Below are positions 1,697-38,723 of a stretch of 64,000 nt of DNA, piece by piece. The position numbers and the translations under genes were made by a program. The number at the start of each line of letters is the position of its first letter. The first letter of the stretch is position 1. Origin of the DNA: Giardia intestinalis (lineage: Eukaryota); NCBI GenBank assembly GCA_000002435.2, contig CM018793.1. One strand, 5' to 3'. Under the pieces are notes generated by a model. The model was not told the origin of the DNA. It searched no databases and worked only from the letters and a program-made list of their open reading frames with translations.

Positions 1697-1741
1697 GGCA
1701 CGCATGAAAGAGCTATGATGCACATGCATAAGTTACAGCTG

Positions 1742-14684: not shown

Positions 14685-14691
14685 CTTAGGT

Positions 14692-14698
14692 AGTAAAC
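14692..14698 (+). promoter_or_regulatory. VSP poly(A) signal AGTAAAC.
   Basis: The conserved VSP 3' flank cttaggtAGTAAACgcatctcctattacatctgct. The same element occurs at 29954-29960 (plus strand), 23448-23454 (minus strand) and 38710-38716 (minus strand). Confidence 0.7.
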
Positions 14699-14913
14699 GC
14701 ATCTCCTATTACATCTGCTCAGCAGCCTTGCGCAGAAGTCCAGGAATGAGTGGCCACGAAGCAGGGTCTCCTGACGTCTCGAGTAAACATACATAGTGCT
14801 CGCTCTGCGTGGAGCATCGAAAGCCCGGCGCGGTGTAGCCACGGCTGCTGGTTGGAGCGGAACGCGTTGGAGCTTTTTGAAAATGGCCCTACCCCGTGCC
14901 GGCCACGCGGCCT

Positions 14914-15534: not shown

Positions 15535-18500
15535 TTTACTTCTCTGGTGGGCTCGTATCAACTGTGCCAAGGTGCGAGGCAACCCCTGGCACGCGGGCCA
15601 CCTCTCCCGGGGGGAGATCCTTGGGTTTCAGTTTACTATCTGAGCGCCAGCTTCATGTAGCTGCTATACGTTGCTAACTGCTAGTACCTGCATAGATAGT
15701 GGTGGGGTTGGGGTGGACACTAGGCTGGCGCGATTTATGGAGGTCGTTTGCCTCCTGGGTCGTTTGAACCTCGAGGGTCCGGAATCTTCCAGTTGGACCC
15801 TCTAAATCATATCACGAACCATCAGACGGAGAGACCGACCCACAGCTGGTCAAAAGGGTCGGCAGTGATCGCAGCCACTGTGTCACTCGAGGACCTGTTG
15901 GGGCCCGGGACTCTGCAGAAGCTCCTCACTAGTTCGGTCTTGAAGTCCACGCTCTTGTGTGCCAAGATCCACGTCTTGTTATGCGTGCCGTGCTTTCCAG
16001 TATAATCGTGCTTATACTTGTCGCCCTCTCTAATGCAGTTTCTAATGCTACCATGACGGGACTTCTCGCTATTTTGTGCTTCATGTTTGTCAACACGGCC
16101 TAGGTGCCCTGCTGTCTGTTCTGCAGCCGCTTCATCTCCTGCTAGAAGGAAGCGAGAGCCCTTGGGTATCCGGTAAGACTTCTGAGTAAACGAGGTAATG
16201 CTTCGATGAGTGTACGTTAGTCGCATCGGCACAGAGCGCGTACTAACCAGACGAAGTCACATGTCTGCTAACTTCTATATAATATTCTAAAGCTATCCGG
16301 TCTCTGGGTGGCACCGCCAGGTGTGTAGTGGGGCCCGTGGCCATTAAGACCCAGAAGGGCCTCTTCTCCTACTTGGCTCCGGAGTCAGTCCCAGTAGAGC
16401 ATTGTTATGAGGCTGGTGTGCAGAGAGACACCGGATAGTTTGTACCGGTACACACCCCTTGTCCCCAGACGGCACTCACCAGGAGTAGGCATTCGTAGAA
16501 CCGCAGCATCGTGGGCTTGTGCACCGCTCGCTGCCCATGCACGTGTAGCTGCAGGCACACAAGCCAGTCGAGAGGCGCTCACTTGCCGGAGCTCCCTAAT
16601 CACTGTTCAGAACACCGAACCGACGCCCCTGCCAGCGCGCCGCTCTTTGTAAGATACCCCAGAGGAACTCCAGTCGTCGCTCAACAGCGTGCATACCCGA
16701 GGCCTCTGTCTAGGGAACACTGCGCCCGCCTCTGCATGTCTTGAAGTGCAGAAAAGAAGGTCTACCGATAGAGCCCTACACCATGTCCAGACATCCTATG
16801 TTTTCAGAATCTTCGCGCAAGGATAAGAGGTAGGATGGGCAGAACTTGGCTGGCCTCGCGTCATGCAGATAGCGATGCTATGCGTACCACGTGATTGCAT
16901 GTCACCGCACAAAGACAAGAGCCTGTATCAGCAGCCGACGGCATTTTACCAGTAGACCGAGGGACATTCCCGCACTGTACTCATTCTCCTGTGTAACTTT
17001 CAAGCATGTTCGGTCGTGCTGGACGCTGCCTTTAGTCATATCTTGCTGAATAGCCAACGCAGTTGGCAGTGACCCCAAATATAGTGCGCCTTGCCTAATT
17101 CAGACTCCGGGATAGGCGTGTGGAAGACAAGCAGACGCATAGTATGGAGCACAGAGAGCCGTAGAGACAGTTCTAAGCGCATCATAGAGAAGCAGAGTGG
17201 GCTGTGGCCTCATGTGGTTAGAGGTATATGATCGTATAGTCTTCTGTTCAGGACACATATCTTGGGAGCCACTGCGTTGAGTCCTCTAGACCATCACTTG
17301 GAGGGCGAACCGTCGTGCAATGCAGGGCTGCATGCCAAAAGACACATGTCTGTCAGGAGAAGGTCGAAGGACGGATCCACAGGCATTGCATGACTTGCTG
17401 GCATTCTTCTGTACAGAGCGTAATGCCTCGTGACAGGGAAGTCGTAGTTTTGTCACCAACCCCAATAGGGCTAAGGCATGATCAACGCAGAACTATGCAT
17501 TCCTGCTGTGGTGTCCACAGAAGTGCTTGTCGAAGAGGATGTTCGCGCTCTCTGAGGGTACACACGAGGAGGGGCTGTGTAATGCGAAGAGCCGGGCACA
17601 GACCTTAAAGGGCTCAGGCTCGTGGTCATAAAAAGTCGCTCCTGCCCGTCTCCGCGGGTACTGCAGTCCTCGATGGTGGATCATCGCATCTTCTCCTTAA
17701 CCGGCACATTGGCAGCCTGGTCTCTGGCGCAGGCACGCAGAGCATCGGGCCAGAAGCGCCGACTCGTTACCTCCTTTGCTCAGCCAAGTCCCGTGTTGGC
17801 CACAGAACACGCGTGTCTGCCCCCAGTGCGTAGCCGCTGAATCCTCAACAGAGGGACGTGTTCAGAAGTCTACGCTAACGCAGCCCACTGCAAGCAAAGT
17901 TCATCTGTCTCTCAGAGAAGAGGCGGCTGGGCCGTGTGTTGCGCATCAAGAGGCCTTTGTGAAGGGCGCCCGCACGTCTCGTCACACATGTGCGTCCGAG
18001 TGACAAGTAGCAGCCGGCGATACGGCCGCCCTCGGCTTCGCAGACACAGCGGGTGTGCTTACTGGTGTTCAAAGCAGTATGCCGTTGATCGTGGCATGCC
18101 TTTTCTCCAGGAGGGCTGGACGCCACTCGAATTGTGACTGTGTGCCATAGACGGGTGCTCTCCTTGTTACTCTGTAACACTCGTGCGCATCGGGACCGGC
18201 GATTCGCATCTGTGATCCAGACAGGAGCAGCGTCTTGTACTTCCGAGTAAGATGCAGCCGGCCCGCGAGCCTACGTGCCGATCTATAGTCTATAACAAGC
18301 AAGCGGCAACCACTTGGCGTGCTACTCACGTGGACATTGCAGACTCTGCATCTGAATCGAGAGGCTTGACAGCGTACCGATTCCACGCTTGGCCGTCATA
18401 GGAGCCGCTTCCTTCTGCTCAGTAGTAAGCAGTCCGGCTTTACCGGTAGGAATGATCGATATAGCTGAGTGGCCCGAATAGACCCTAGTGACACCACGGC

Positions 18501-19526
18501 TTTCTGTTTATATTAAACGCCTTCGCTGTACTGGGGTCTCAGTGAGAAGACGAGCACAGATCCAGGCATGCAAGCCTTTAGAGATGCGTACTCCACGCAA
18601 TTCCGGTGTGCTCGCCTGACGAGTCCTACTGCTCTAGCCGGCATACCGTTAGATCCTTCTGTACAGATTGAGCGAGCAGATATTAGCATACGGGTCACGT
18701 TAAGTACCTATGTTCAAGGCAGCTGCTGTTGAACGGGCACACCCAGAGCCACTGTCACGTAAGATGCCAGCAAGATTCGCGGCCGCAGATCACACTGTAA
18801 TCTGGCGACTGATTTGGTCATGTCGCTTCTTTATCGGCTGGAAACTCGACTGGAAGCGACAGAGAGCACGTCGGGAGAACTCGATGGGAGAGGACTGGCA
18901 GGGCTTCCTGCGCCACGGGGGGAGCCACCGCAGGAGGACGCGCAGGCACGCACGCCAGGCCACAGTAGACACGCGGACGCCCCTGTAGACTGGGCCGGCA
19001 GCAGGCGTCCGCAGAATCCGCGCCAGAGCCAGCTGCTCAAAAAACTGGGCAGCCTCTGGTCGTGTGCAGGCCTTGCAGAGCGCTGCGGCTCCCGACACTC
19101 GGCGACCCCTCTCAGAGCGGAAGACCCCGCGGGCCGCAGGCAGCAGCTCGTCGTCGGCGATGTCCCGAACGAGGGGGACGGCCCCAGCCTGCCTGCCTCC
19201 GCAGAGCTCTGGGTGTCTGCAGACAAACCGGGGCTGCGCAGGGCGCGGCTCTCCCTGGCGGCCGAGGGCGGGGATCCCCGGCAATACCAAAAAACTCCGA
19301 TCAATACATCAACCCCGGCGCCGCCGTGTGCAAAGCAGTCTGTTCTGTGTGGCGACCTAAGCCAACTCGTACTGCGGCGATGGCCCGGATGAGGGCGCCC
19401 TGCTCGCCCGACGGACCGGGGCAGGCAGGCAACAAACACCCGCTAAAACTTTTGCGCAAGGCCTGTACATATTTAATTTCACATTATTCGTTGGTCTGTT
19501 TTTAGTTTTATCGCCGCTTCTATTGG

Positions 19527-20117
19527 ATGGGCTCTGGGGCAATGACGGCGGAGACGCGCGCCTCCGTTCTGCTCGAGCTCGCGAAGCAGGTCGTCGCTGC
19601 CCGGCGGCTGGGGGAGACGGCCGAGAGCCTCGCGCGGCGGCCGCTGCTCCTCCACCGGCACGTGCTCCGGACGGCCATCGACTGGAAGAAGATCGCCCGC
19701 GCCCTGTCCGAGGACCGGAGCAGGATCTACCACTGGTACCGCGAGACGCACTCGCGGAGCATCCTCAACGTGAAGATGACCGGCGAGGACCGCAGGGCCA
19801 TCAAGGCGATGATCATCGCCGGGGTCAGGGACCGGAGCATCCTGGGCCCGGACTTCTACCGCAGGGTCCACGAGCGCTTCGGGGCGAAGTATCCGCGCCA
19901 GGAGCTGCGGATGACGTACAACAACGCGCTCCGCACCCAGGACGTCCGCGCCGCCCTGGAGGAGCATGGGGTTCTTCCTGGGCCCGGCACCCTCTCGCTC
20001 CAGACGGGCCAGGATCTTCTCGGGCCGCCCACTTCCTTCGCATGCGTGCCATGCTTCCCCCCTGCGGGCTACGGGGGCGTGCCTGGGTGCGCTGATACAT
20101 ACCCCAGTAAGGGCTGA
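19527..20117 (+). CDS. Low-confidence hypothetical ORF (196 aa) with a possible Myb/SANT-like or HTH segment (TAIDWKKIARALSEDRSRIYHWYRETH). An identical mirror copy lies at 33291..33881 on the minus strand.
   Basis: Starts with ATG. Its amino-acid composition is balanced compared with the Arg/Pro/Gly-rich ORFs around it in the GC-rich block. It shows the W..IA..L....R....W.R.. spacing of helix-turn-helix domains. There is no strong initiator and the region is GC-rich, so chance ORFs are expected. Confidence 0.25.
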   Translation: MGSGAMTAETRASVLLELAKQVVAARRLGETAESLARRPLLLHRHVLRTAIDWKKIARALSEDRSRIYHWYRETHSRSILNVKMTGEDRRAIKAMIIAGVRDRSILGPDFYRRVHERFGAKYPRQELRMTYNNALRTQDVRAALEEHGVLPGPGTLSLQTGQDLLGPPTSFACVPCFPPAGYGGVPGCADTYPSKG

Positions 20118-23100
20118 AGACTGGAGAGCCCGGCTTGCCTGGTGGTCGTCGAGGGGCATCGACGAGTGGTCGGTAGAAACGGCTAATAGTTGAAGTCCTG
20201 GTCAGTGGCGAGACAGTCATTCCTAGAGCGTGTAGCATGCTCGGCCACTTCATAACGCAGGGCCCACCAGACGCAAGCTGTGACGGCCTGGATGTCGCGC
20301 AATCCGTGGCCTGTGCATCGTTGCAGGGGCCATACACAGCAGGTGGAGGCAGGGTTTCCTGTGTGCTCAGACGACTCGACCATCGCAGTTCTGGGTCGAC
20401 GATCCACTAGATATTCCTGTCTAACAACGGGCGGCCGAACGCCCTCTGGGCTGTGAGCTAACACTAACGTGCAGTTGGTCGGCCACCAGATCCATCTTGG
20501 TTAGCCCTCTGCCTACATGCGCCAACACGCCGAGGAGCTACAGGGCAGTCGTTTGCTGTCTTGACAGGTATACTATTGCCTCTATATCTGCACCCTGGAT
20601 GCGGCCACCATAGCACAGTTGCATCTCTGATCATCCTGTGCACACCTTCTGGCACGAGCAGGTGCGCCGGAAGGGATGCACTGCCCACCGCCGAGAAATG
20701 GATGAACTCCCTTACCCAGGAGCCGGCTGACCACTAGCCGTGCCCAGCAAACCCCAATAAGCAGGCCTGCTGAGCCAACCCATCCAAGAAGCTGTGTATC
20801 CGGAAGAGCTTCGCGTCGAATGGCTCCTTGATTAAAGAAGCTGGCATCCAGCGCGACATGACGACTGCTCGCCTGGTGCTGTGCTACCTGCTGGGCGGAA
20901 ACACAGACGCCCTAAGCTCCGTGTGAGCTTGTGCTCAAAGCGTCCTTCACCGGCACGGGATTCCAGGAACTAGGCGTAGATAGGAAGAGCATTCCCCGCT
21001 AGTGCCACGAAGTACCGGTACGCTACCTGGATACACCGATGGCAGCGAAGAGTACGAGAAGGTCCCAGGGCCTCATCGAGCGGGTCTGCTCCTAGCAGGC
21101 CCAAGTGGACGCTCTCTCCAGCAGTGTACAAGAAGCCTGGGAGGGAGTGCTCAGGCTGGAGCTGAGGCGTTGCTGGTACAGGCTGTCCTTACTGAGTGCA
21201 TCCCTCAGCGTCCAATAAGTGGAAAAGTGACCGGAGCTAGGTGTGCCTGCTTCTTCTCTGCCGCCTGCATGTTGTTGCATCTCTAGCTCTTCCTCATTTG
21301 TCGAGCGACTGCTCCTTCTGGCCTCTTGCTGGTCCTCGTTCGTCGTGTAGTCTCTTTTGGAGCTGCTCCCTGGAGGTCGGGCTGACCAGCAACATGGAGG
21401 AGCCTCATTCTTAGCTTCACACTCCACAACTGGCCCAGCGACATGTTGACCATTTTACAAGCAGTTCTGGGTCGCCCAGTCTGGGGCCGGCTGCTGTGCA
21501 TTCTCTGCTTGACTGCCAGGGTCCGCGTCTGGCCCAGACACTAGATGGACAGGAGGCACGGACAAACGCCATTTGCTTGTTGCTTTCATGATCCACGAAG
21601 CTGCTGTCTTTATGTGAGTCTCGACCCAGGTCGGTCTCCGTTGTAGGTGCAACAGTCTTGCGCATGCAATCTGGAGGATCTACGTTAGCGGGTCGAGCCG
21701 AGCAATCCTTGTTAGCGCCTGCCATCCGACGTCTCTGTTGTTGAACTGGCCTGTAGAAGTCCGCTATAGGCCCTCAGGCTCTTTGTCTGTGAGGTTCTGT
21801 GAGGTCCTCTATACCGGTCAGGCCTGTCCGCGTACTCTGTTGATGGGCGAGCTGGTGCATGCAGTCACAGCCCCTGCGCCACCTTCCATTCGGCACTCGG
21901 CGTGTCCACCTGCTTCCGGCCTGCCCTCGCAGAGCACGCTAAGCGCCCACCTATAGCGCATGTCGGTGGAGACTCCTCGGGAGCAATTTGCGGGGGTCTC
22001 GATGAGGTGGCCGACGCCCAGTGAACGACCCCAAGCCACCCTTTAGTGTCTGCGCTGTCGCTCCACGAGAGTGCGTAGTGGGATGCGGCCCGGAGTCCTC
22101 ATGTGCGGGGGCTGACAAGGACTGACAGCCACAGTCAACGGCAGAAAGTTCGGCACCCCGTGTTCCCACGACGTCTCCGATCGCAGTACTGGCGGGGCCT
22201 GACGGCGCTTCTCTTCTTAATTCGGAACGAGTTAAGGAGTTTCCGCCGTAGGATGGCCGAACTGGCGGCCGGCAGGGCTGTGCGATGTGTTAGAGATTGT
22301 TAGAGATTCATACTGTATATTGTGCAGTGGCTAACGTGTATGGGTGTCCCACCGAAGACCCGGCGAAGGATGGCACCGGAGGTGAGACAGGATGACTCCT
22401 GGTGGAGGGGACCACGGTGCTGGCTTGCCTGCAGATGCCGTGGCCAAAATCTCAGCCCGTCCAGGAGTTTAACGGAGGTCATGCGGCCGGACACCGAGGC
22501 CTACCGGAGAGCCGCATCGCCCCTGCACGAGCCAGCAAGCACTGCCTTCGACCCGACCACAGTTGAGAGCGCCCATGTCCGTGGATGCCGTCGGTCAGGT
22601 CCCTGAAGACCACCCTGCTCACAGCCCCAGGGATCCCTCTGCAGACTCTGATTTCTATATCCCTGGGGTAGATGTTTGCGGATAGCGGCACAGGGCTCAG
22701 CAAAACCGCCAGAAGATCCACAGCACACTGTCATTAACTATAAACGTCTTGCGGTATTCATTCCACAATTGAGCCGGTCGTACTGACACAGGAACTGGAG
22801 TCAGGCACTTCTAGGGTGCAACTACAGGACTGTGGAGGAGCTTGCCTTCACACAAAGAAGATCACGTGGACCAGATGTGCCCGGACTGAGAAGCGCCCGC
22901 TTTACCGAGTAATGGTCGCTAATCTATGCACACAGATCATGTTTGGCGGCAAGCTCCCCTGTAGCTCATGCATCACTGTGAATCACTGCCTAGAGGCTTG
23001 TGTTGGAGATGCCGCAAGACACTAATGGCTGACAGGTGTGACTAGCCGTTCTTCCAGTGGTCGTCTCTGGATGCACCGAGTACCTAAGGCGATAGATCAG

Positions 23101-23461
23101 CGCTGCAGGCCTTGACTGTCACGGGCCTTGTGCATAGCTGATCAAATGCCCAACACACTCTGCCCGAGGGTGCCCAAACCCCACGGTGCTGTAGTCGGGC
23201 TGCTAAGGTGCGAGAGGTGGGGCACAGAGGCGCCTATCAGAGCCAAGGATCTATGTGTCACCTGCCTCTGGGTGGAGCAACTACGCCATAGTAGGGGGTG
23301 TTTGTTGCCATACAGAAGTGGGTACGATGAGATACGAAGGCACAGTCCTGCCGCAGAATCCGACGGGTGCTCGGAAACGGGTAACCCGGTAACCTCGTAG
23401 AATAGCAACGTCGAAGCTATAGAGTAAGCAGATGTAATAGGAGATGCGTTTACTACCTAAG

Positions 23462-25426
23462 TCACGCCTTGCCCCGGCACACGAACCACCAGCAGAGGAA
23501 GCCGACGAGGCCCCCCACAACAACGATGACAGCGACAGAGATCCCCGCTATGGCGCCTGTGCTGAGGCCGCTCTTGTTCGTGCTCCCGCCGTTGTTGTCA
23601 CCAGTACTATCACCCATCTCGAGGCACATGAACGCACTGGTGGATGACACCGTGCACTGTCTGCACCCAGCGAGCCCCTCAGAGCACTTCTTGCACGGTC
23701 CACTATCGCTACTCTCCTTATAATATCCACGAGCACATACTTTGCATGTGGCAGCCGCGGTTTCGCAGGTGTAGCAGCTTTCATGACATTTCGTGCAAGC
23801 TTTGACGTTACTGAATGCTATGTATCCATCCATACATTCTGTACATTCATTTGCAGTATTACACGTCTTACAGCCTTCAGGGCATATTACAAGGTTGTTT
23901 TCATTATTTAAGTTAAACCCTGGCATAGGTCTATCACAAGTCCCACCAGTTGTCGCCACTGTTGCACATACACTGTGCGCAGGGTACTTCTCATCTTCGT
24001 AGCACCCTCCGTTCATCCGAAGGAGCCCATTAGCACACGAATTGCAGACACCGGTTCCTTGAGAGGTGCATGTCGCAGCCCGCCCACTTGGTTTCGGTGC
24101 ACAGACACCGTTCTGGGGATACTCATTGTCCTGGCTACATGCAGAGCAGTACCTTGTGCCTTTAACAATTAGATCACATGCTTTACAGTTCCCAGTGGCT
24201 TTATCTGTATTGACAACACATTCAGGAGCGCATTTACCCTTCTGCCCATTTGCATAGTCAAGGATGGTTCCAGGTTTGCACTCAGTACAATCATTAGCAG
24301 TGTTTCCCTTACAATTCTTGCAACTACCGTCACACTTCTGGCATATCCCAGCATCGTCAGCATAGAATCCATCTTCGCAGAAACCGCATTTGCCGTTCGG
24401 ATCACACACAACGCAATTCTTGACCTCGCACTTCTTACAGATCCCTTTGCCGCCCTCTGTGCTGCTGTAGTAGCCTAGAATATATTCGCAATATTTTATG
24501 CACATCCCTGTCGGAGTGAGATAGTTCTTGTCCTTGCACTCCTCACATGTCTTCTTGTCTGCAGAACATTTCTGGCAGTTCTCGACGGGGCAGTCAGAGG
24601 GCGGAGGTTCTGGGGCATCGACACATGTAGATCCCTCGTCATTGGGTGTCTTTCCGCCGTTACACGTAGTGCACTTGATAGCAGACTCTCCAGCTAATCC
24701 GCGAGCTTCCTTGAGAGTACATGTCTTACAGTCAATTATGCCACCGGCGTCGGTGTCTCCACACGGGACGCATTTTTTGATACCCTTAGCTGTGACAGGG
24801 AAGTGGTCTGTCTTACACTGCGTCTTTTCAACGCAACTAGAAGGCGTTACAGCTAATAAATAGTATTCGCCCTCACACGTAGTGCATGTGGCAGAGCCGG
24901 GGCCTTCAGGAGGAGTACACACTTTGCAGTTCGGAACACCTCTGAAACCATCAATCGTATCTGCCTCATTGCAGGCAATGCAAGATTGGTGGGTGTTATC
25001 GCTAGCACCCATATTTTTGAAGAACCCGTTAGCGTCATTGCATGTTTCACAGAGTCCTGCACTACTACTCGCACTTTTGCAAACGGTTTGTCCAGGAGGT
25101 GCTGCTTGTACATAGCATCCACCTTTGTGGAGGAAGTATCCAGCCTTAGTACACTTTCCACATGTGGTTGAATGCTCATCGAGAGCTCCATCAACTTTTT
25201 CACATCCGGCAGTTGTGATAAGCCCATCACTTTTATCCTTACATTCCCCATTAATGGGCACCTCTCCAGGTTTAGCACAGTCAGTGCAAACTCTATCTCC
25301 ACCTATGCTAATGCATTTACCCTGTTTACACTGTCCTGTTTGCGGGTCACTGCTAGCCTCTGTGCATGTTTTTGCTGCCCGTGCTACTTGCAGAATCAAA
25401 ATTCCAAAGAGGATTTTCTCGAACAT
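23462..25426 (-). CDS. vsp: VSP-B copy 1 (655 aa from MFEKILFGILILQVARAAKTC...). It has a CRGKA tail and is transcribed away from the palindrome centre.
   Basis: 100% identical at the protein level to 27982..29946. I chose the MFEKILF start by homology with VSP-A; the track ORF extends upstream to a GTG at 25642. The poly(A) signal is at 23448-23454 on the minus strand. Confidence 0.9.
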   Translation of the reverse strand: MFEKILFGILILQVARAAKTCTEASSDPQTGQCKQGKCISIGGDRVCTDCAKPGEVPINGECKDKSDGLITTAGCEKVDGALDEHSTTCGKCTKAGYFLHKGGCYVQAAPPGQTVCKSASSSAGLCETCNDANGFFKNMGASDNTHQSCIACNEADTIDGFRGVPNCKVCTPPEGPGSATCTTCEGEYYLLAVTPSSCVEKTQCKTDHFPVTAKGIKKCVPCGDTDAGGIIDCKTCTLKEARGLAGESAIKCTTCNGGKTPNDEGSTCVDAPEPPPSDCPVENCQKCSADKKTCEECKDKNYLTPTGMCIKYCEYILGYYSSTEGGKGICKKCEVKNCVVCDPNGKCGFCEDGFYADDAGICQKCDGSCKNCKGNTANDCTECKPGTILDYANGQKGKCAPECVVNTDKATGNCKACDLIVKGTRYCSACSQDNEYPQNGVCAPKPSGRAATCTSQGTGVCNSCANGLLRMNGGCYEDEKYPAHSVCATVATTGGTCDRPMPGFNLNNENNLVICPEGCKTCNTANECTECMDGYIAFSNVKACTKCHESCYTCETAAATCKVCARGYYKESSDSGPCKKCSEGLAGCRQCTVSSTSAFMCLEMGDSTGDNNGGSTNKSGLSTGAIAGISVAVIVVVGGLVGFLCWWFVCRGKA

Positions 25427-27981
25427 TGCCAGCAGTCCGTAGAGCATCCAGTAGAGAGAGCCTGCACACCTAATATCAGTGTGCTGTGTCGCTAGACATC
25501 GCTTATGGGGGCGGTCCAGAGGTCTTACATGAGCTGCCCCAACTTTCTGATCAGTTTGGAGACGATGGCTGGTTCTAGACAGCAAACAGGGACTCCTCTT
25601 TATTAGCATATCTAAAACCTGGCACCTTCCCCGGCCGCTCACCCTGGGATTTAGCTCACTTGCCCACTTGCGTCGTCCACCAATGGCGCCTCTCCTTGGT
25701 CTTCCTTCGTGGTGGGTGAAGCTCCGGTCGCTGTCTTTTTTAGATGCTCCCGTCTGTCAGGGGCTGCCATCGGGCTCTCCACTGGCCGCCCCTCGGTGTC
25801 CGTCTGGCTGTGGCCCGGGCAGCGCTCTACAGTCGCGGTCACTTGGGTCTCAGCGGGCCAGCTGGTGGGGAGGCTGGGGCATGGGGCGGTGAGGCTGGAG
25901 GGTGGCGGTGTCGTCTGTGCCCCTGGTCCGGTGGGCCATTGGGGTGGTAGGTGATCCCCTCTCTGTTTGCCAAGGTGGTTGTGTCTGATCTCCAACCGTC
26001 GTTGTACTCCCGAGACAAAGGCACCGACGATCGTGTCGTGTCCCCCTGACTGAGCGCCTCCTCTCAGCCCCTGCATGTCTCGGGCAGTACTGCTTCTCTG
26101 TTTGACTAGTACGTGAGGGTCAAAGCAGGCCATCCCAGGCCCTCCTGATGCTCTGTGCGGGTCTGCTGAGCCCCCTGGCATGCCCTGTCTGGTGCCTCGA
26201 CGGTAGTTCACCTCGGGCCAGCAGGGGCATGGATGACCCTGTGGATGGGATGGGTTCTCTCAGGCCTCTAGTGTGATGACCCAGAAGACTGACACGGTGG
26301 GGCACCAGTGACTGCACTGTCCCCGTGGTCAGCTGTGCTGCCCCTGGTGGGTCCTCGTTGTAGAGCGCTGTGTGTTGTTCATAGGCAGAGGTGAGCCTCC
26401 TTGGTCTCAAGATGCTCTACCATGCAGAGAGGAGCACGCTGAGGGTCACCCATACCTCACACCTGCTGTGTCCTCGGGGAGTTCCCGGTGTGATCCACTA
26501 GGACCTTGACCCCTCTCGTGGCTCTGATGACTCGCCTCAGGGAGAGTCGGGGCACCCTATACTGAGGGGTGTGCACCCTCCTGCATGAGCTGGGACCCAC
26601 TGCACTGCCCCCAAGGAGGTCTGCTATGAGAGGCAGTGAATGATTGACAGCCCCTCAGAGTGCGGTGGAGGGTGCTCGTGGTCGTCTCTTGTGATCGGGC
26701 ATCACTCTGATGGTCGGCTCCTGTGCCTGCGTGGTGCTCAGAGGTCACCTGTCTGCCTCGTAGCCTGCTGGACAGCCGGGCCTCTTGTGGCGTCCGAAGG
26801 TCTCCTCACTCCTCTGGTCGCTGTCCCCTCGGGTCATAGGTGGAGGCCAGCGAGTCTTCGGAGTCTGGTGCCTGCCTGGGTGTCATGGAGAGGCTGGCAG
26901 CTATCAAGGCTCTGCCACTGCTCGCCTGCCTGGAGTGTGCCTCCCTTGGGCCTGCTCTGCTGTGCTGCGTGAGTCCTCTGGCTCCTATCAGACCTCTGAT
27001 TGTGAGAGTGACTCCACCTGGCCTTCTGATGCCCCTGTGGATGAGCATAGCAATGTGTCTGGTTGAGGATCTCTGGTGCCCGTGGCTGTCACTGCCTCTC
27101 GGGTGCTTGGGTAGTTGCCTGGGGCTCTCGTATGGGGGCACAGTCTGTTCGTGTGTGGATGGTCCTCCTGGACTCATGTCCATCTGTGCACACTGTCACT
27201 CAGCCTCGAGAGCAGACCAGTGCAGTCACCAGGGTTGCTGTCAGAGGGAGTCGTCTGCCACTACCATCGTTCGAGCAGACTCTACAGCTCAGGCTGGCTG
27301 CTGTGCACCCTCATGGCAGGGCTGCTTGACTCCCCTTGGTCATCCTCTCTGTCCCGGTGCACACGGCTCCTGAGGGTTGTCTGGGTGGAGGCACTCACAG
27401 ACCACGAGCACACAGAGGGATGAGTCACAGATGGACAGCCCCCAGTCACCACAACTGCAATCACCCCAGTCCACCGAGAGGTCAGGGGCACAGACGACAC
27501 CGCCACCCTCCAGCCTCACCGCCCCATGCCCCAGCCTCCCCACCAGCTGGCCCGCTGAGACCCAAGTGACCGCGACTGTAGAGCGCTGCCCGGGCCACAG
27601 CCAGACGGACACCGAGGGGCGGCCAGCGGAGAGCCCGATGGCAGCCCCTGACAGACGGGAGCATCTAAAAAAGACAGCGACCCGAGCTTCACCCACCACG
27701 AAGGAAGACCAAGGAGAGGCGCCATTGGTGGACGACGCAAGTGGGCAAGTGAGCTAAATCCCAGGGTGAGCGGCCGGGGAAGGTGCCAGGTTTTAGATAT
27801 GCTAATAAAGAGGAGTCCCTGTTTGCTGTCTAGAACCAGCCATCGTCTCCAAACTGATCAGAAAGTTGGGGCAGCTCATGTAAGACCTCTGGACCGCCCC
27901 CATAAGCGATGTCTAGCGACACAGCACACTGATATTAGGTGTGCAGGCTCTCTCTACTGGATGCTCTACGGACTGCTGGCA

Positions 27982-29946
27982 ATGTTCGAGAAAATCCTCT
28001 TTGGAATTTTGATTCTGCAAGTAGCACGGGCAGCAAAAACATGCACAGAGGCTAGCAGTGACCCGCAAACAGGACAGTGTAAACAGGGTAAATGCATTAG
28101 CATAGGTGGAGATAGAGTTTGCACTGACTGTGCTAAACCTGGAGAGGTGCCCATTAATGGGGAATGTAAGGATAAAAGTGATGGGCTTATCACAACTGCC
28201 GGATGTGAAAAAGTTGATGGAGCTCTCGATGAGCATTCAACCACATGTGGAAAGTGTACTAAGGCTGGATACTTCCTCCACAAAGGTGGATGCTATGTAC
28301 AAGCAGCACCTCCTGGACAAACCGTTTGCAAAAGTGCGAGTAGTAGTGCAGGACTCTGTGAAACATGCAATGACGCTAACGGGTTCTTCAAAAATATGGG
28401 TGCTAGCGATAACACCCACCAATCTTGCATTGCCTGCAATGAGGCAGATACGATTGATGGTTTCAGAGGTGTTCCGAACTGCAAAGTGTGTACTCCTCCT
28501 GAAGGCCCCGGCTCTGCCACATGCACTACGTGTGAGGGCGAATACTATTTATTAGCTGTAACGCCTTCTAGTTGCGTTGAAAAGACGCAGTGTAAGACAG
28601 ACCACTTCCCTGTCACAGCTAAGGGTATCAAAAAATGCGTCCCGTGTGGAGACACCGACGCCGGTGGCATAATTGACTGTAAGACATGTACTCTCAAGGA
28701 AGCTCGCGGATTAGCTGGAGAGTCTGCTATCAAGTGCACTACGTGTAACGGCGGAAAGACACCCAATGACGAGGGATCTACATGTGTCGATGCCCCAGAA
28801 CCTCCGCCCTCTGACTGCCCCGTCGAGAACTGCCAGAAATGTTCTGCAGACAAGAAGACATGTGAGGAGTGCAAGGACAAGAACTATCTCACTCCGACAG
28901 GGATGTGCATAAAATATTGCGAATATATTCTAGGCTACTACAGCAGCACAGAGGGCGGCAAAGGGATCTGTAAGAAGTGCGAGGTCAAGAATTGCGTTGT
29001 GTGTGATCCGAACGGCAAATGCGGTTTCTGCGAAGATGGATTCTATGCTGACGATGCTGGGATATGCCAGAAGTGTGACGGTAGTTGCAAGAATTGTAAG
29101 GGAAACACTGCTAATGATTGTACTGAGTGCAAACCTGGAACCATCCTTGACTATGCAAATGGGCAGAAGGGTAAATGCGCTCCTGAATGTGTTGTCAATA
29201 CAGATAAAGCCACTGGGAACTGTAAAGCATGTGATCTAATTGTTAAAGGCACAAGGTACTGCTCTGCATGTAGCCAGGACAATGAGTATCCCCAGAACGG
29301 TGTCTGTGCACCGAAACCAAGTGGGCGGGCTGCGACATGCACCTCTCAAGGAACCGGTGTCTGCAATTCGTGTGCTAATGGGCTCCTTCGGATGAACGGA
29401 GGGTGCTACGAAGATGAGAAGTACCCTGCGCACAGTGTATGTGCAACAGTGGCGACAACTGGTGGGACTTGTGATAGACCTATGCCAGGGTTTAACTTAA
29501 ATAATGAAAACAACCTTGTAATATGCCCTGAAGGCTGTAAGACGTGTAATACTGCAAATGAATGTACAGAATGTATGGATGGATACATAGCATTCAGTAA
29601 CGTCAAAGCTTGCACGAAATGTCATGAAAGCTGCTACACCTGCGAAACCGCGGCTGCCACATGCAAAGTATGTGCTCGTGGATATTATAAGGAGAGTAGC
29701 GATAGTGGACCGTGCAAGAAGTGCTCTGAGGGGCTCGCTGGGTGCAGACAGTGCACGGTGTCATCCACCAGTGCGTTCATGTGCCTCGAGATGGGTGATA
29801 GTACTGGTGACAACAACGGCGGGAGCACGAACAAGAGCGGCCTCAGCACAGGCGCCATAGCGGGGATCTCTGTCGCTGTCATCGTTGTTGTGGGGGGCCT
29901 CGTCGGCTTCCTCTGCTGGTGGTTCGTGTGCCGGGGCAAGGCGTGA
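27982..29946 (+). CDS. vsp: VSP-B copy 2 (655 aa). It is identical to copy 1 and sits head-to-head with it across the spacer.
   Basis: Mirror of 23462..25426. ATG at 27982 (gcaATGttcgagaaaatc). AGTAAAC at 29954-29960. Confidence 0.9.
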   Translation: MFEKILFGILILQVARAAKTCTEASSDPQTGQCKQGKCISIGGDRVCTDCAKPGEVPINGECKDKSDGLITTAGCEKVDGALDEHSTTCGKCTKAGYFLHKGGCYVQAAPPGQTVCKSASSSAGLCETCNDANGFFKNMGASDNTHQSCIACNEADTIDGFRGVPNCKVCTPPEGPGSATCTTCEGEYYLLAVTPSSCVEKTQCKTDHFPVTAKGIKKCVPCGDTDAGGIIDCKTCTLKEARGLAGESAIKCTTCNGGKTPNDEGSTCVDAPEPPPSDCPVENCQKCSADKKTCEECKDKNYLTPTGMCIKYCEYILGYYSSTEGGKGICKKCEVKNCVVCDPNGKCGFCEDGFYADDAGICQKCDGSCKNCKGNTANDCTECKPGTILDYANGQKGKCAPECVVNTDKATGNCKACDLIVKGTRYCSACSQDNEYPQNGVCAPKPSGRAATCTSQGTGVCNSCANGLLRMNGGCYEDEKYPAHSVCATVATTGGTCDRPMPGFNLNNENNLVICPEGCKTCNTANECTECMDGYIAFSNVKACTKCHESCYTCETAAATCKVCARGYYKESSDSGPCKKCSEGLAGCRQCTVSSTSAFMCLEMGDSTGDNNGGSTNKSGLSTGAIAGISVAVIVVVGGLVGFLCWWFVCRGKA

Positions 29947-32900
29947 CTTAGGTAGTAAACGCATCTCCTATTACATCTGCTTACTCTATAGCTTCGACGT
30001 TGCTATTCTACGAGGTTACCGGGTTACCCGTTTCCGAGCACCCGTCGGATTCTGCGGCAGGACTGTGCCTTCGTATCTCATCGTACCCACTTCTGTATGG
30101 CAACAAACACCCCCTACTATGGCGTAGTTGCTCCACCCAGAGGCAGGTGACACATAGATCCTTGGCTCTGATAGGCGCCTCTGTGCCCCACCTCTCGCAC
30201 CTTAGCAGCCCGACTACAGCACCGTGGGGTTTGGGCACCCTCGGGCAGAGTGTGTTGGGCATTTGATCAGCTATGCACAAGGCCCGTGACAGTCAAGGCC
30301 TGCAGCGCTGATCTATCGCCTTAGGTACTCGGTGCATCCAGAGACGACCACTGGAAGAACGGCTAGTCACACCTGTCAGCCATTAGTGTCTTGCGGCATC
30401 TCCAACACAAGCCTCTAGGCAGTGATTCACAGTGATGCATGAGCTACAGGGGAGCTTGCCGCCAAACATGATCTGTGTGCATAGATTAGCGACCATTACT
30501 CGGTAAAGCGGGCGCTTCTCAGTCCGGGCACATCTGGTCCACGTGATCTTCTTTGTGTGAAGGCAAGCTCCTCCACAGTCCTGTAGTTGCACCCTAGAAG
30601 TGCCTGACTCCAGTTCCTGTGTCAGTACGACCGGCTCAATTGTGGAATGAATACCGCAAGACGTTTATAGTTAATGACAGTGTGCTGTGGATCTTCTGGC
30701 GGTTTTGCTGAGCCCTGTGCCGCTATCCGCAAACATCTACCCCAGGGATATAGAAATCAGAGTCTGCAGAGGGATCCCTGGGGCTGTGAGCAGGGTGGTC
30801 TTCAGGGACCTGACCGACGGCATCCACGGACATGGGCGCTCTCAACTGTGGTCGGGTCGAAGGCAGTGCTTGCTGGCTCGTGCAGGGGCGATGCGGCTCT
30901 CCGGTAGGCCTCGGTGTCCGGCCGCATGACCTCCGTTAAACTCCTGGACGGGCTGAGATTTTGGCCACGGCATCTGCAGGCAAGCCAGCACCGTGGTCCC
31001 CTCCACCAGGAGTCATCCTGTCTCACCTCCGGTGCCATCCTTCGCCGGGTCTTCGGTGGGACACCCATACACGTTAGCCACTGCACAATATACAGTATGA
31101 ATCTCTAACAATCTCTAACACATCGCACAGCCCTGCCGGCCGCCAGTTCGGCCATCCTACGGCGGAAACTCCTTAACTCGTTCCGAATTAAGAAGAGAAG
31201 CGCCGTCAGGCCCCGCCAGTACTGCGATCGGAGACGTCGTGGGAACACGGGGTGCCGAACTTTCTGCCGTTGACTGTGGCTGTCAGTCCTTGTCAGCCCC
31301 CGCACATGAGGACTCCGGGCCGCATCCCACTACGCACTCTCGTGGAGCGACAGCGCAGACACTAAAGGGTGGCTTGGGGTCGTTCACTGGGCGTCGGCCA
31401 CCTCATCGAGACCCCCGCAAATTGCTCCCGAGGAGTCTCCACCGACATGCGCTATAGGTGGGCGCTTAGCGTGCTCTGCGAGGGCAGGCCGGAAGCAGGT
31501 GGACACGCCGAGTGCCGAATGGAAGGTGGCGCAGGGGCTGTGACTGCATGCACCAGCTCGCCCATCAACAGAGTACGCGGACAGGCCTGACCGGTATAGA
31601 GGACCTCACAGAACCTCACAGACAAAGAGCCTGAGGGCCTATAGCGGACTTCTACAGGCCAGTTCAACAACAGAGACGTCGGATGGCAGGCGCTAACAAG
31701 GATTGCTCGGCTCGACCCGCTAACGTAGATCCTCCAGATTGCATGCGCAAGACTGTTGCACCTACAACGGAGACCGACCTGGGTCGAGACTCACATAAAG
31801 ACAGCAGCTTCGTGGATCATGAAAGCAACAAGCAAATGGCGTTTGTCCGTGCCTCCTGTCCATCTAGTGTCTGGGCCAGACGCGGACCCTGGCAGTCAAG
31901 CAGAGAATGCACAGCAGCCGGCCCCAGACTGGGCGACCCAGAACTGCTTGTAAAATGGTCAACATGTCGCTGGGCCAGTTGTGGAGTGTGAAGCTAAGAA
32001 TGAGGCTCCTCCATGTTGCTGGTCAGCCCGACCTCCAGGGAGCAGCTCCAAAAGAGACTACACGACGAACGAGGACCAGCAAGAGGCCAGAAGGAGCAGT
32101 CGCTCGACAAATGAGGAAGAGCTAGAGATGCAACAACATGCAGGCGGCAGAGAAGAAGCAGGCACACCTAGCTCCGGTCACTTTTCCACTTATTGGACGC
32201 TGAGGGATGCACTCAGTAAGGACAGCCTGTACCAGCAACGCCTCAGCTCCAGCCTGAGCACTCCCTCCCAGGCTTCTTGTACACTGCTGGAGAGAGCGTC
32301 CACTTGGGCCTGCTAGGAGCAGACCCGCTCGATGAGGCCCTGGGACCTTCTCGTACTCTTCGCTGCCATCGGTGTATCCAGGTAGCGTACCGGTACTTCG
32401 TGGCACTAGCGGGGAATGCTCTTCCTATCTACGCCTAGTTCCTGGAATCCCGTGCCGGTGAAGGACGCTTTGAGCACAAGCTCACACGGAGCTTAGGGCG
32501 TCTGTGTTTCCGCCCAGCAGGTAGCACAGCACCAGGCGAGCAGTCGTCATGTCGCGCTGGATGCCAGCTTCTTTAATCAAGGAGCCATTCGACGCGAAGC
32601 TCTTCCGGATACACAGCTTCTTGGATGGGTTGGCTCAGCAGGCCTGCTTATTGGGGTTTGCTGGGCACGGCTAGTGGTCAGCCGGCTCCTGGGTAAGGGA
32701 GTTCATCCATTTCTCGGCGGTGGGCAGTGCATCCCTTCCGGCGCACCTGCTCGTGCCAGAAGGTGTGCACAGGATGATCAGAGATGCAACTGTGCTATGG
32801 TGGCCGCATCCAGGGTGCAGATATAGAGGCAATAGTATACCTGTCAAGACAGCAAACGACTGCCCTGTAGCTCCTCGGCGTGTTGGCGCATGTAGGCAGA

Positions 32901-35900
32901 GGGCTAACCAAGATGGATCTGGTGGCCGACCAACTGCACGTTAGTGTTAGCTCACAGCCCAGAGGGCGTTCGGCCGCCCGTTGTTAGACAGGAATATCTA
33001 GTGGATCGTCGACCCAGAACTGCGATGGTCGAGTCGTCTGAGCACACAGGAAACCCTGCCTCCACCTGCTGTGTATGGCCCCTGCAACGATGCACAGGCC
33101 ACGGATTGCGCGACATCCAGGCCGTCACAGCTTGCGTCTGGTGGGCCCTGCGTTATGAAGTGGCCGAGCATGCTACACGCTCTAGGAATGACTGTCTCGC
33201 CACTGACCAGGACTTCAACTATTAGCCGTTTCTACCGACCACTCGTCGATGCCCCTCGACGACCACCAGGCAAGCCGGGCTCTCCAGTCTTCAGCCCTTA
33301 CTGGGGTATGTATCAGCGCACCCAGGCACGCCCCCGTAGCCCGCAGGGGGGAAGCATGGCACGCATGCGAAGGAAGTGGGCGGCCCGAGAAGATCCTGGC
33401 CCGTCTGGAGCGAGAGGGTGCCGGGCCCAGGAAGAACCCCATGCTCCTCCAGGGCGGCGCGGACGTCCTGGGTGCGGAGCGCGTTGTTGTACGTCATCCG
33501 CAGCTCCTGGCGCGGATACTTCGCCCCGAAGCGCTCGTGGACCCTGCGGTAGAAGTCCGGGCCCAGGATGCTCCGGTCCCTGACCCCGGCGATGATCATC
33601 GCCTTGATGGCCCTGCGGTCCTCGCCGGTCATCTTCACGTTGAGGATGCTCCGCGAGTGCGTCTCGCGGTACCAGTGGTAGATCCTGCTCCGGTCCTCGG
33701 ACAGGGCGCGGGCGATCTTCTTCCAGTCGATGGCCGTCCGGAGCACGTGCCGGTGGAGGAGCAGCGGCCGCCGCGCGAGGCTCTCGGCCGTCTCCCCCAG
33801 CCGCCGGGCAGCGACGACCTGCTTCGCGAGCTCGAGCAGAACGGAGGCGCGCGTCTCCGCCGTCATTGCCCCAGAGCCCATCCAATAGAAGCGGCGATAA
33901 AACTAAAAACAGACCAACGAATAATGTGAAATTAAATATGTACAGGCCTTGCGCAAAAGTTTTAGCGGGTGTTTGTTGCCTGCCTGCCCCGGTCCGTCGG
34001 GCGAGCAGGGCGCCCTCATCCGGGCCATCGCCGCAGTACGAGTTGGCTTAGGTCGCCACACAGAACAGACTGCTTTGCACACGGCGGCGCCGGGGTTGAT
34101 GTATTGATCGGAGTTTTTTGGTATTGCCGGGGATCCCCGCCCTCGGCCGCCAGGGAGAGCCGCGCCCTGCGCAGCCCCGGTTTGTCTGCAGACACCCAGA
34201 GCTCTGCGGAGGCAGGCAGGCTGGGGCCGTCCCCCTCGTTCGGGACATCGCCGACGACGAGCTGCTGCCTGCGGCCCGCGGGGTCTTCCGCTCTGAGAGG
34301 GGTCGCCGAGTGTCGGGAGCCGCAGCGCTCTGCAAGGCCTGCACACGACCAGAGGCTGCCCAGTTTTTTGAGCAGCTGGCTCTGGCGCGGATTCTGCGGA
34401 CGCCTGCTGCCGGCCCAGTCTACAGGGGCGTCCGCGTGTCTACTGTGGCCTGGCGTGCGTGCCTGCGCGTCCTCCTGCGGTGGCTCCCCCCGTGGCGCAG
34501 GAAGCCCTGCCAGTCCTCTCCCATCGAGTTCTCCCGACGTGCTCTCTGTCGCTTCCAGTCGAGTTTCCAGCCGATAAAGAAGCGACATGACCAAATCAGT
34601 CGCCAGATTACAGTGTGATCTGCGGCCGCGAATCTTGCTGGCATCTTACGTGACAGTGGCTCTGGGTGTGCCCGTTCAACAGCAGCTGCCTTGAACATAG
34701 GTACTTAACGTGACCCGTATGCTAATATCTGCTCGCTCAATCTGTACAGAAGGATCTAACGGTATGCCGGCTAGAGCAGTAGGACTCGTCAGGCGAGCAC
34801 ACCGGAATTGCGTGGAGTACGCATCTCTAAAGGCTTGCATGCCTGGATCTGTGCTCGTCTTCTCACTGAGACCCCAGTACAGCGAAGGCGTTTAATATAA
34901 ACAGAAAGCCGTGGTGTCACTAGGGTCTATTCGGGCCACTCAGCTATATCGATCATTCCTACCGGTAAAGCCGGACTGCTTACTACTGAGCAGAAGGAAG
35001 CGGCTCCTATGACGGCCAAGCGTGGAATCGGTACGCTGTCAAGCCTCTCGATTCAGATGCAGAGTCTGCAATGTCCACGTGAGTAGCACGCCAAGTGGTT
35101 GCCGCTTGCTTGTTATAGACTATAGATCGGCACGTAGGCTCGCGGGCCGGCTGCATCTTACTCGGAAGTACAAGACGCTGCTCCTGTCTGGATCACAGAT
35201 GCGAATCGCCGGTCCCGATGCGCACGAGTGTTACAGAGTAACAAGGAGAGCACCCGTCTATGGCACACAGTCACAATTCGAGTGGCGTCCAGCCCTCCTG
35301 GAGAAAAGGCATGCCACGATCAACGGCATACTGCTTTGAACACCAGTAAGCACACCCGCTGTGTCTGCGAAGCCGAGGGCGGCCGTATCGCCGGCTGCTA
35401 CTTGTCACTCGGACGCACATGTGTGACGAGACGTGCGGGCGCCCTTCACAAAGGCCTCTTGATGCGCAACACACGGCCCAGCCGCCTCTTCTCTGAGAGA
35501 CAGATGAACTTTGCTTGCAGTGGGCTGCGTTAGCGTAGACTTCTGAACACGTCCCTCTGTTGAGGATTCAGCGGCTACGCACTGGGGGCAGACACGCGTG
35601 TTCTGTGGCCAACACGGGACTTGGCTGAGCAAAGGAGGTAACGAGTCGGCGCTTCTGGCCCGATGCTCTGCGTGCCTGCGCCAGAGACCAGGCTGCCAAT
35701 GTGCCGGTTAAGGAGAAGATGCGATGATCCACCATCGAGGACTGCAGTACCCGCGGAGACGGGCAGGAGCGACTTTTTATGACCACGAGCCTGAGCCCTT
35801 TAAGGTCTGTGCCCGGCTCTTCGCATTACACAGCCCCTCCTCGTGTGTACCCTCAGAGAGCGCGAACATCCTCTTCGACAAGCACTTCTGTGGACACCAC

Positions 35901-37873
35901 AGCAGGAATGCATAGTTCTGCGTTGATCATGCCTTAGCCCTATTGGGGTTGGTGACAAAACTACGACTTCCCTGTCACGAGGCATTACGCTCTGTACAGA
36001 AGAATGCCAGCAAGTCATGCAATGCCTGTGGATCCGTCCTTCGACCTTCTCCTGACAGACATGTGTCTTTTGGCATGCAGCCCTGCATTGCACGACGGTT
36101 CGCCCTCCAAGTGATGGTCTAGAGGACTCAACGCAGTGGCTCCCAAGATATGTGTCCTGAACAGAAGACTATACGATCATATACCTCTAACCACATGAGG
36201 CCACAGCCCACTCTGCTTCTCTATGATGCGCTTAGAACTGTCTCTACGGCTCTCTGTGCTCCATACTATGCGTCTGCTTGTCTTCCACACGCCTATCCCG
36301 GAGTCTGAATTAGGCAAGGCGCACTATATTTGGGGTCACTGCCAACTGCGTTGGCTATTCAGCAAGATATGACTAAAGGCAGCGTCCAGCACGACCGAAC
36401 ATGCTTGAAAGTTACACAGGAGAATGAGTACAGTGCGGGAATGTCCCTCGGTCTACTGGTAAAATGCCGTCGGCTGCTGATACAGGCTCTTGTCTTTGTG
36501 CGGTGACATGCAATCACGTGGTACGCATAGCATCGCTATCTGCATGACGCGAGGCCAGCCAAGTTCTGCCCATCCTACCTCTTATCCTTGCGCGAAGATT
36601 CTGAAAACATAGGATGTCTGGACATGGTGTAGGGCTCTATCGGTAGACCTTCTTTTCTGCACTTCAAGACATGCAGAGGCGGGCGCAGTGTTCCCTAGAC
36701 AGAGGCCTCGGGTATGCACGCTGTTGAGCGACGACTGGAGTTCCTCTGGGGTATCTTACAAAGAGCGGCGCGCTGGCAGGGGCGTCGGTTCGGTGTTCTG
36801 AACAGTGATTAGGGAGCTCCGGCAAGTGAGCGCCTCTCGACTGGCTTGTGTGCCTGCAGCTACACGTGCATGGGCAGCGAGCGGTGCACAAGCCCACGAT
36901 GCTGCGGTTCTACGAATGCCTACTCCTGGTGAGTGCCGTCTGGGGACAAGGGGTGTGTACCGGTACAAACTATCCGGTGTCTCTCTGCACACCAGCCTCA
37001 TAACAATGCTCTACTGGGACTGACTCCGGAGCCAAGTAGGAGAAGAGGCCCTTCTGGGTCTTAATGGCCACGGGCCCCACTACACACCTGGCGGTGCCAC
37101 CCAGAGACCGGATAGCTTTAGAATATTATATAGAAGTTAGCAGACATGTGACTTCGTCTGGTTAGTACGCGCTCTGTGCCGATGCGACTAACGTACACTC
37201 ATCGAAGCATTACCTCGTTTACTCAGAAGTCTTACCGGATACCCAAGGGCTCTCGCTTCCTTCTAGCAGGAGATGAAGCGGCTGCAGAACAGACAGCAGG
37301 GCACCTAGGCCGTGTTGACAAACATGAAGCACAAAATAGCGAGAAGTCCCGTCATGGTAGCATTAGAAACTGCATTAGAGAGGGCGACAAGTATAAGCAC
37401 GATTATACTGGAAAGCACGGCACGCATAACAAGACGTGGATCTTGGCACACAAGAGCGTGGACTTCAAGACCGAACTAGTGAGGAGCTTCTGCAGAGTCC
37501 CGGGCCCCAACAGGTCCTCGAGTGACACAGTGGCTGCGATCACTGCCGACCCTTTTGACCAGCTGTGGGTCGGTCTCTCCGTCTGATGGTTCGTGATATG
37601 ATTTAGAGGGTCCAACTGGAAGATTCCGGACCCTCGAGGTTCAAACGACCCAGGAGGCAAACGACCTCCATAAATCGCGCCAGCCTAGTGTCCACCCCAA
37701 CCCCACCACTATCTATGCAGGTACTAGCAGTTAGCAACGTATAGCAGCTACATGAAGCTGGCGCTCAGATAGTAAACTGAAACCCAAGGATCTCCCCCCG
37801 GGAGAGGTGGCCCGCGTGCCAGGGGTTGCCTCGCACCTTGGCACAGTTGATACGAGCCCACCAGAGAAGTAAA

Positions 37874-38494: not shown

Positions 38495-38723
38495 AGGCCG
38501 CGTGGCCGGCACGGGGTAGGGCCATTTTCAAAAAGCTCCAACGCGTTCCGCTCCAACCAGCAGCCGTGGCTACACCGCGCCGGGCTTTCGATGCTCCACG
38601 CAGAGCGAGCACTATGTATGTTTACTCGAGACGTCAGGAGACCCTGCTTCGTGGCCACTCATTCCTGGACTTCTGCGCAAGGCTGCTGAGCAGATGTAAT
38701 AGGAGATGCGTTTACTACCTAAG

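Follow-up and report, generated by a model that had tools for sequence, protein, structure and literature searches.

Differences between the arms of a 24.1-kb VSP palindrome on Giardia intestinalis chromosome 5 lie near the arm edges, as arm-to-arm gene conversion would predict

We analyzed a window of 64,000 nucleotides from chromosome 5 of Giardia intestinalis WB (the whole stretch of DNA, counted from its first letter), which contains a palindrome of 24.1 kb, with special attention to the inner end of its left arm (25651-25929). The genes in the window were identified by exact protein look-ups and correspond to KAE8304969 to KAE8304982, on the chromosome of 4,018,654 bp in the 2020 PacBio assembly of WB C6. 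Each palindrome arm carries: a gene encoding a variant-specific surface protein (VSP), a GST-like gene, two hypothetical genes and a 5S rRNA gene. The two arm VSP genes (recorded as KAE8304974 and KAE8304975) are identical open reading frames (ORFs), which encode a CXXC-rich protein with a CRGKA tail, and they are arranged head-to-head, with 2,513 nt between the annotated starts and 2,189 nt when the older start is used. The annotated VSP start is at 25447, and the interval 25651-25929, 204-482 nt upstream of it, is non-coding. Both the structure and the class to which it belongs have already been published, the locus being vsp26.1/26.2 (GL50803_137723/137722). In Table 2 of Xu 2020 the pair GL50803_00137722/137723 is given for chromosome 5 in the orientation "<- ->", with 661 aa and a distance of 2,513 bp (PMC7000408), which is exactly the spacing of the arm VSP starts found here. 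The coordinates of all features are collected in Table 1.

Table 1. Positions of the palindrome components, the associated genes and the three arm-to-arm differences within the window
Feature	Position	Strand	Remarks
Left arm, core, 11,292 nt	14634..25925		Reverse complement of 27483-38774; 3 mismatches, 0 indels
Right arm, 11,292 nt	27483..38774		Ancestral base at each of the mismatch sites
Unique asymmetric spacer, 1,557 nt	25926..27482		GC ~0.60; without inverted symmetry except in the terminal zone
Decayed inner extension, left side	25926..25965		Right counterpart at ~27445-27482
Graded outer zone	14517..14633		~80% identity with 38775-38891; 3' coding tails of VSP-A and VSP-C, not arm sequence
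Mismatch 1	15207		Left T, right C at 38201; 573 nt from outer edge; E->K in left GST-like gene
Mismatch 2	25725		Left C, right G at 27683; 200 nt from inner edge
Mismatch 3	25781		Left A, right G at 27627; 144 nt from inner edge
Arm VSP gene, left copy, 661 aa	23462..25447	-	vsp26 pair GL50803_00137722/137723; PF03302, 8e-120; KAE8304974/KAE8304975
Arm VSP gene, right copy	27961..29946	+	Identical 661-aa protein; annotated start 2,513 nt from left start
GST-like gene, left copy	14914..15534	-	K variant; right copy 37874-38494, E variant
5S rRNA gene, left copy	22145..22264	-	RF00001, 88 bits; right copy 31144-31263
Hypothetical gene GL50803_00113864	19527..20117	+	Right copy d113864 at 33291-33881
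Neighbouring gene GL50803_0060223	18820-19392
Left flanking VSP gene (VSP-A), KAE8304970	12519..14684	+	Tail 14547-14719 100% identical to arm VSP tail
Right flanking VSP gene (VSP-C), KAE8304979, vsp25 = A6-S2	38724..40928	-	201-nt tandem repeat; tail contains right outer junction

A repeat search returned a single very large inverted repeat (14512-25946 against 27462-38896). Within it, the arms were compared without gaps, each left-arm base i being set against the complement of base 53408-i, and this exact comparison gave three mismatches and no indels over 11,292 nt, or an arm-to-arm identity of 99.973%. The locus thus has the long inverted arms, the unique spacer (1,557 nt) and the identity of at least 99.9% that characterise palindromes of the human Y type. 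An earlier note on this DNA, made from the sequence alone, had reported mismatches at 15207, 25725 and 25781 and no others, and had derived the perfect identity of the remaining ~11.3 kb from the ORF track; at the nucleotide level, both statements hold for the complete arms. The note had further put two mismatches within 200 bp of the spacer boundary, in agreement with the distances measured here, and had called the third, at 15207, interior. The last point has to be corrected, as this site is close to the outer edge, and consequently all three differences are near an edge and the pattern is stronger than originally noted. No difference is more than 573 nt away from an arm end, and the 10,517 nt between 15207 and 25725 are perfect, so that the full alignment displays neither an even spread of mismatches nor a high number of them.

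The interior is depleted of differences relative to the boundaries, with a probability of ~0.001-0.01 for n=3 sites. Under uniform placement, the probability that all three sites lie within 573 nt of an edge is P=1.1e-3, and this becomes P=1.0e-2 if 25725 and 25781, which are 56 nt apart, are counted as a single event. Likewise, the probability that at least two of the three sites lie within 200 nt of the inner edge is P=9e-4 (3.7e-3 for either edge). The clustering of the differences at the edges is therefore nominally significant, yet it rests on three sites.

The polarity of the differences could be assessed by comparison with related sequences. At 15207, the right-arm C is common to the arm copy of isolate DH (assemblage AII; locus L012), to paralogues (L001, L002 and L006) and to a Logan contig (L023), and at the protein level an E is found in every relative and a K in the left arm. 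At both 25725 and 25781 an AII-like metagenome contig (L024) has G, the right-arm base. Since the base of the outgroup or paralogue is that of the right arm at all three sites, the left-arm bases are derived singletons; two of the three changes are from G:C to A:T. A 73-nt pattern that covers both inner sites gave 0 matches in the JGI metagenome contigs.

One of the inner differences may have been seen before. Adam 2010 described vsp26.1/26.2 as a head-to-head pair with 2,190 nt between the ORFs and a 5' divergence at 169 nt, the 3' extent being left blank (PMC2996952). Site 25781 sits 172 nt above the old VSP start codon, and its link to the 169 nt of Table 5 in Adam 2010 is suggestive only. 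If the two are the same, this suggests that the Sanger assembly already held the difference at 25781 but not the one at 25725.

At the inner boundary the change from identity to divergence is abrupt: identity extends 478 nt above the start of the arm VSP gene, and from 0 mismatches in 144 nt the divergence rises to about 22-40% across the next 35 nt. Deeper inverted symmetry within the spacer (25926-27482) was looked for and none was found. The AII-like contig is collinear with the inner end of the left arm and with two thirds of the spacer (25676-27145, 86% identity) and, because of this collinearity, the continuity of left arm and spacer represents the ancestral, older arrangement. On the right arm, homology to the same contig reaches ~35 nt past the identity boundary (28/36 positions, with a 3-nt indel; z=5.8 against shuffles), is marginal over the following 100 nt and is absent after that, whereas the left side (25926..25965) carries two complex changes relative to the AII sequence. 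As the right arm is still homologous beyond the boundary, the copy formerly extended further inward, with strong divergence of its terminal stretch on both arms. A 25-nt motif at the inner boundary has no second occurrence in the window. Neither the ORF at 25651-26211 (minus strand) nor the other ORFs of the spacer gave a Pfam match; the ORFs of the spacer and inner edge were absent from the protein collection, and a homology search with ORF 25651-26211 matched one AII contig only.

At its outer end, each arm terminates within the conserved 3' coding tail of a resident VSP gene, which is KAE8304970 for the left arm and KAE8304979 for the right one, and perfect identity begins 51 nt ahead of the stop codon of the flanking VSP gene. 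Both junctions accordingly lie in pre-existing short inverted homology, which is formed by the VSP tail at the outer side (~80% over 120 nt outside the arm) and by the ~35 nt described above at the inner side. Three VSP tails in the locus (14547-14719, 23427-23599 and 29809-29981) are 100% identical over 173 nt, comprising 138 coding and 35 untranslated nucleotides; a fourth (38689-38864) shows 91% identity and is identical only within the arm. Most of the 254 WB vsp 3' ends that were examined by others differ, with 190 distinct sequences (PMC2996952). The identity of three tails at one locus, while most WB vsp 3' ends are distinct, suggests that the VSP tails have been homogenised locally. 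The right flanking gene, vsp25/A6-S2, contains a tandem repeat at 40063-40803 (201-nt unit, 3.7 copies, 100% identity). Its protein has 734 aa here against 638 aa in the annotation of 2007, and an older GenBank entry gives 769 aa; the repeat copy number therefore varies between records.

The arrangement at the locus differs between isolates and assemblages. The flanks of the palindrome are 98.2-98.6% identical between DH and WB. On the left DH contig the dihydrouridine synthase gene is followed by a VSP gene and then by arm sequence (94.2% identity), within which the contig breaks off at window position 17508. On the right DH contig, synteny holds to a point 5 nt beyond the stop codon of VSP-C, after which come the genes for a 788-aa protein, a Brix protein and an EGF protein, and not an arm. 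DH is a draft assembly, in which misassembly at the VSP tails is possible. A search for the WB orthologues of the DH genes that stand in place of the arm returned short Logan contigs only. In isolate P15 (assemblage E), housekeeping genes adjoin the orthologue of VSP-A and no arm is found there. Between the WB arms and the AII contigs the divergence is 3.4-5.9%, and AII-like metagenome contigs match the arm segment 18637-23281 at 96.1-96.6%. An exact protein search for the WB-identical arm genes (GST-like K/E, GL50803_113864, GL50803_60223 and the VSPs) in Logan, ENA and NCBI contigs recovered the reference chromosome only.

Several other features of the AII-like sequences were recorded. In one sample, the arm-like contigs had 2.7x, and L024 2.2x, the coverage of a single-copy flank contig; we rejected this coverage of 2.2-2.7x as proof of an AII palindrome, for one of the arm-like contigs abuts an ordinary gene at 18717 and the segment may be a dispersed repeat. 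In loci L004 and L005 (1-1316 against 1317-4767) the arm segment from window position 18717 adjoins an ordinary protein-coding gene, while contig L003 continues past 18717 as WB does and differs by 1.3% from the L004/L005 type; in AII, the 5S-rRNA-bearing segment from 18717 may be a repeat that is dispersed or has other boundaries. The DH VSP gene next to the dihydrouridine synthase gene (L012 13300-13840 against window 38726-39071 and 14250-14684) has the head of WB VSP-A (98.6% identity), and its C-terminal 350-450 nt are ~76% identical to WB VSP-C, ~50% to WB VSP-A and 66% to DH VSP-C. Recombination has affected the VSP genes on the palindrome's flanks in different ways in AI and AII. A remnant of a palindrome in DH was considered and rejected, the tail of the left DH VSP gene being only 66% identical to that of DH VSP-C.

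With respect to the remaining genes, the 1.8-kb segment with the GST-like gene (14837-16620 and 36788-38571) has a paralogue with 94.5% identity elsewhere, at KAE8302024 on the 1.54-Mb WB chromosome. The GST-like protein variants of other samples (loci L001, L002 and L006) look mosaic between two types, and the arm-side copy of DH has a deletion of ~136 nt within the gene. At 19479-20159, long ORFs on opposite strands overlap (GL50803_113864 on the plus strand, kept in 2020, and GL50803_113865 on the minus strand, present in the 2007 annotation only), neither of which matches Pfam. Outside the palindrome, two adjacent same-strand genes (53515-55983 and 56086-58527; 822 and 813 aa) share a similar layout with coiled-coil C-termini and appear to be a diverged tandem duplicate. 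The region 14001-42000, which comprises the palindrome, the spacer and the right flanking VSP gene, is a GC-rich (0.52-0.61) and gene-poor island between flanks of 0.43-0.48. This composition was considered as a sign of GC-biased conversion and rejected, since the GC content is just as high in the spacer and the flanking VSP-C region; with a spacer as rich in GC as the arms, the duplicated part does not stand out by its composition.

The best reading of the locus, which we put forward tentatively and a little short of calling it probable, is that of an inverted duplication by homology-driven repair synthesis, followed by arm-to-arm gene conversion from which the edges escape. An inverted copy would arise by repair synthesis (break-induced replication or synthesis-dependent strand annealing), with the end points of the copy landing in VSP-family homology, after which intrachromosomal gene conversion between the arms would keep them identical. 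Recombination requires a minimum of flanking homology. Since conversion needs homology on both sides of the tract, correction would be rarest in the last few hundred bases of an arm; new mutations would persist there and the boundary would slowly erode. Conversion with escape at the edges therefore predicts differences at the edges only, a sharp step over 35 nt and homogenised VSP tails. The sharp step in identity at the inner edge is not predicted by uniform decay after a recent copy, and the decayed ~35 nt past this edge would resemble an eroding palindrome boundary.

The proposal that the differences follow the pattern of gene conversion within a palindrome had been made in the earlier note. 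The observation behind it is confirmed and slightly strengthened, and the interpretation is partly supported, not demonstrated: the restriction of the differences to the edges, the derived left-arm bases, the ~35 nt of decayed homology and the likeness to the human Y palindrome P6 speak for it, whereas the number of sites (three), an arm divergence (0.027%) that also fits a recent copy, and the DH contig without the right junction do not. Several points weigh against our explanation. Three differences are too little data to prove copy-correction, and the two inner ones may represent one event. A very young duplication gives a divergence of 0.027% without any conversion, and the WB form of the palindrome may indeed be young and lineage-specific, because the DH assembly lacks the junction of arm and VSP-C and P15 has no arm beside the orthologue of VSP-A. 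Error-prone synthesis during formation, instead of long-term erosion, could have left the decayed 35 nt as a scar. Finally, consensus errors or minor alleles would look like these left-arm singletons, and the Logan contig over 15207 carries the right-arm base only.

Among the alternatives, a single recent inverted duplication of ~11.3 kb, formed by repair synthesis between VSP-family homologies and without continuing conversion, survives best, although we regard it as rather unlikely. The differences would then be later mutations or the outcome of patchy heteroduplex repair or error-prone synthesis near the tract ends, and their placement at the edges would stem from the founding event or from chance. 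The comparison of isolates agrees with such a history, in that the right flank of DH continues into unrelated genes while its left flank runs from VSP to arm, and the P15 orthologue of VSP-A has no adjoining arm; so does the position of both arm ends in pre-existing homology. Given that the AI-AII divergence of the arm is 4-6%, the 0.027% between the arms would correspond, if no correction took place, to ~0.5% of the age of the AI-AII split, and Adam et al. 2010 also took the identical pairs to be recent (PMC2996952). Yet under uniform mutation the placement of all differences at the edges has the low probability given above (P ~0.001-0.01), and it is the left arm, the older and AII-collinear copy, that carries the derived state at both inner sites, not the presumably newly synthesised right arm. 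Moreover, duplication and turnover would have to proceed at a very high rate to account for 19 VSP pairs of which every one is identical and for which intermediate ages are not reported.

A technical or allelic origin of the differences is improbable in our estimation. The left-arm bases would in that case be PacBio/Quiver consensus errors, or variants present on some of the four copies of chromosome 5, that ended up in a single arm because placing a read near an arm end requires an anchor in the spacer or flank. This accords with the fact that all three bases are singletons, found in no other sequence fetched, and with the short-read Logan contig, which crosses 15207 unbroken with the right-arm base. 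The first divergence at 169 nt in Adam 2010 fits 25781 but would miss 25725. The consulted part of the description of the assembly mentions polishing with Quiver and no short-read polishing step, and reports raised allelic variation in mapped reads around VSPs (PMC7000408). Opposed to this is the independent Sanger assembly, in which the inner palindrome was already present, spaced as it is here (2,190 against 2,189 nt), together with a divergence near 25781. PacBio consensus errors are mostly indels, whereas the three differences are substitutions. Anchoring alone also leaves the perfect interior unexplained, because long reads anchored in the flanks should resolve interior differences too. 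A large mobile element with the arms as its terminal inverted repeats, which the geometry of long inverted repeats around a central segment would by itself allow, is scarcely credible and was rejected, as no transposase, integrase or reverse-transcriptase domain was found in the 18 ORFs of left arm and spacer, the arms carry ordinary cellular genes (VSP, GST-like, 5S rRNA), and the outer ends lie within the coding tails of two resident VSPs and not at target-site duplications.

If gene conversion with escape at the edges is the correct explanation, its consequences could reach beyond this locus. It is possible, albeit doubtful at present, that the identical inverted VSP pairs of Giardia are in general long-lived palindromes, whose arms are kept identical by continuing conversion while the ends erode, in a self-correction like that of the Y chromosome. 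Self-correction in an apparently asexual tetraploid would then extend, at this locus, over 11 kb and several non-VSP genes, and active homogenisation of the arms, if it takes place, would make the 19 duplicated VSP pairs of WB a system of concerted evolution. This would bear on: i) the very low heterozygosity of an asexual tetraploid parasite; ii) the upkeep and reshuffling of the antigen repertoire; and iii) the question why synteny between assemblages breaks at VSP genes. The present result mainly refines the picture of an already known locus: the arms are followed over their full 11.3 kb, their end points are placed in VSP-family homology, and each of the three differences is given a polarity. 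These arm-specific sites can usefully serve as markers when conversion is tested directly.

The locus can be compared with four known systems. The closest is the set of inverted VSP pairs of Giardia itself (including vsp1267), with which it shares identical ORFs, intervening non-coding DNA and an abrupt 5' divergence. Adam 2010 reported 14 identical inverted pairs, found that identical WB vsp genes occur in inverted pairs only, and termed these probably recent duplications "cryptic" (PMC2996952); Xu 2020 gives 19 duplicated VSP pairs in WB (PMC7000408), and 7 identical inverted pairs are known from G. muris (PMC7641422). In the published pairs the flank identity amounts to 139-729 nt, whereas here the 3' identity continues for 8,828 nt past the stop codon, to 14634, so that the unit differs from the published description in having 11.3-kb arms with four more genes and ends in the tails of two other VSPs. 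The papers on these pairs favour recent duplication, without an analysis of how one arm differs from the other. A second likeness is with inverted duplications that arise by fold-back, break-induced replication or strand annealing, which also have an asymmetric spacer and junctions in pre-existing homology; judged by the draft DH assembly, the Giardia structure may in addition be absent from a sister lineage. For the Giardia locus, such a mechanism is suggested by the end points alone, and neither an intermediate nor an unduplicated AI allele was encountered. A third is with the inverted repeats of plastid genomes, which bear rRNA genes and are homogenised by conversion. They too are long identical inverted copies with an rRNA gene and with boundaries that shift over time, but the Giardia palindrome is located on a nuclear chromosome, contains 5S rRNA only, and has arms that consist mostly of non-coding DNA and surface-antigen genes.

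The fourth comparison is with the palindromes of the human Y (P1-P8) and primate X chromosomes, whose arms are >99.9% identical and are kept so by arm-to-arm gene conversion. The Giardia palindrome resembles them in its unique spacer, its identity of 99.97%, the presence of gene-family members and the location of the differences toward the boundary. Its arms are 10 to 100 times shorter, and its host is a tetraploid, apparently asexual protist. For the human Y, persistence across lineages proves conversion, whereas the lineage nearest to WB seems to be without one of the junctions. In the human Y palindrome P6, 16/29 arm differences lie within 20 kb of the outer boundary of 110-kb arms (PMC3723533), and for Giardia gene conversion has been reported in assemblage AI, enriched in GC-rich and VSP genes (PMC12669663). 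Both the boundary excess of P6 and the reported conversion in AI would match a palindrome whose arms are corrected against each other and escape correction at their edges.

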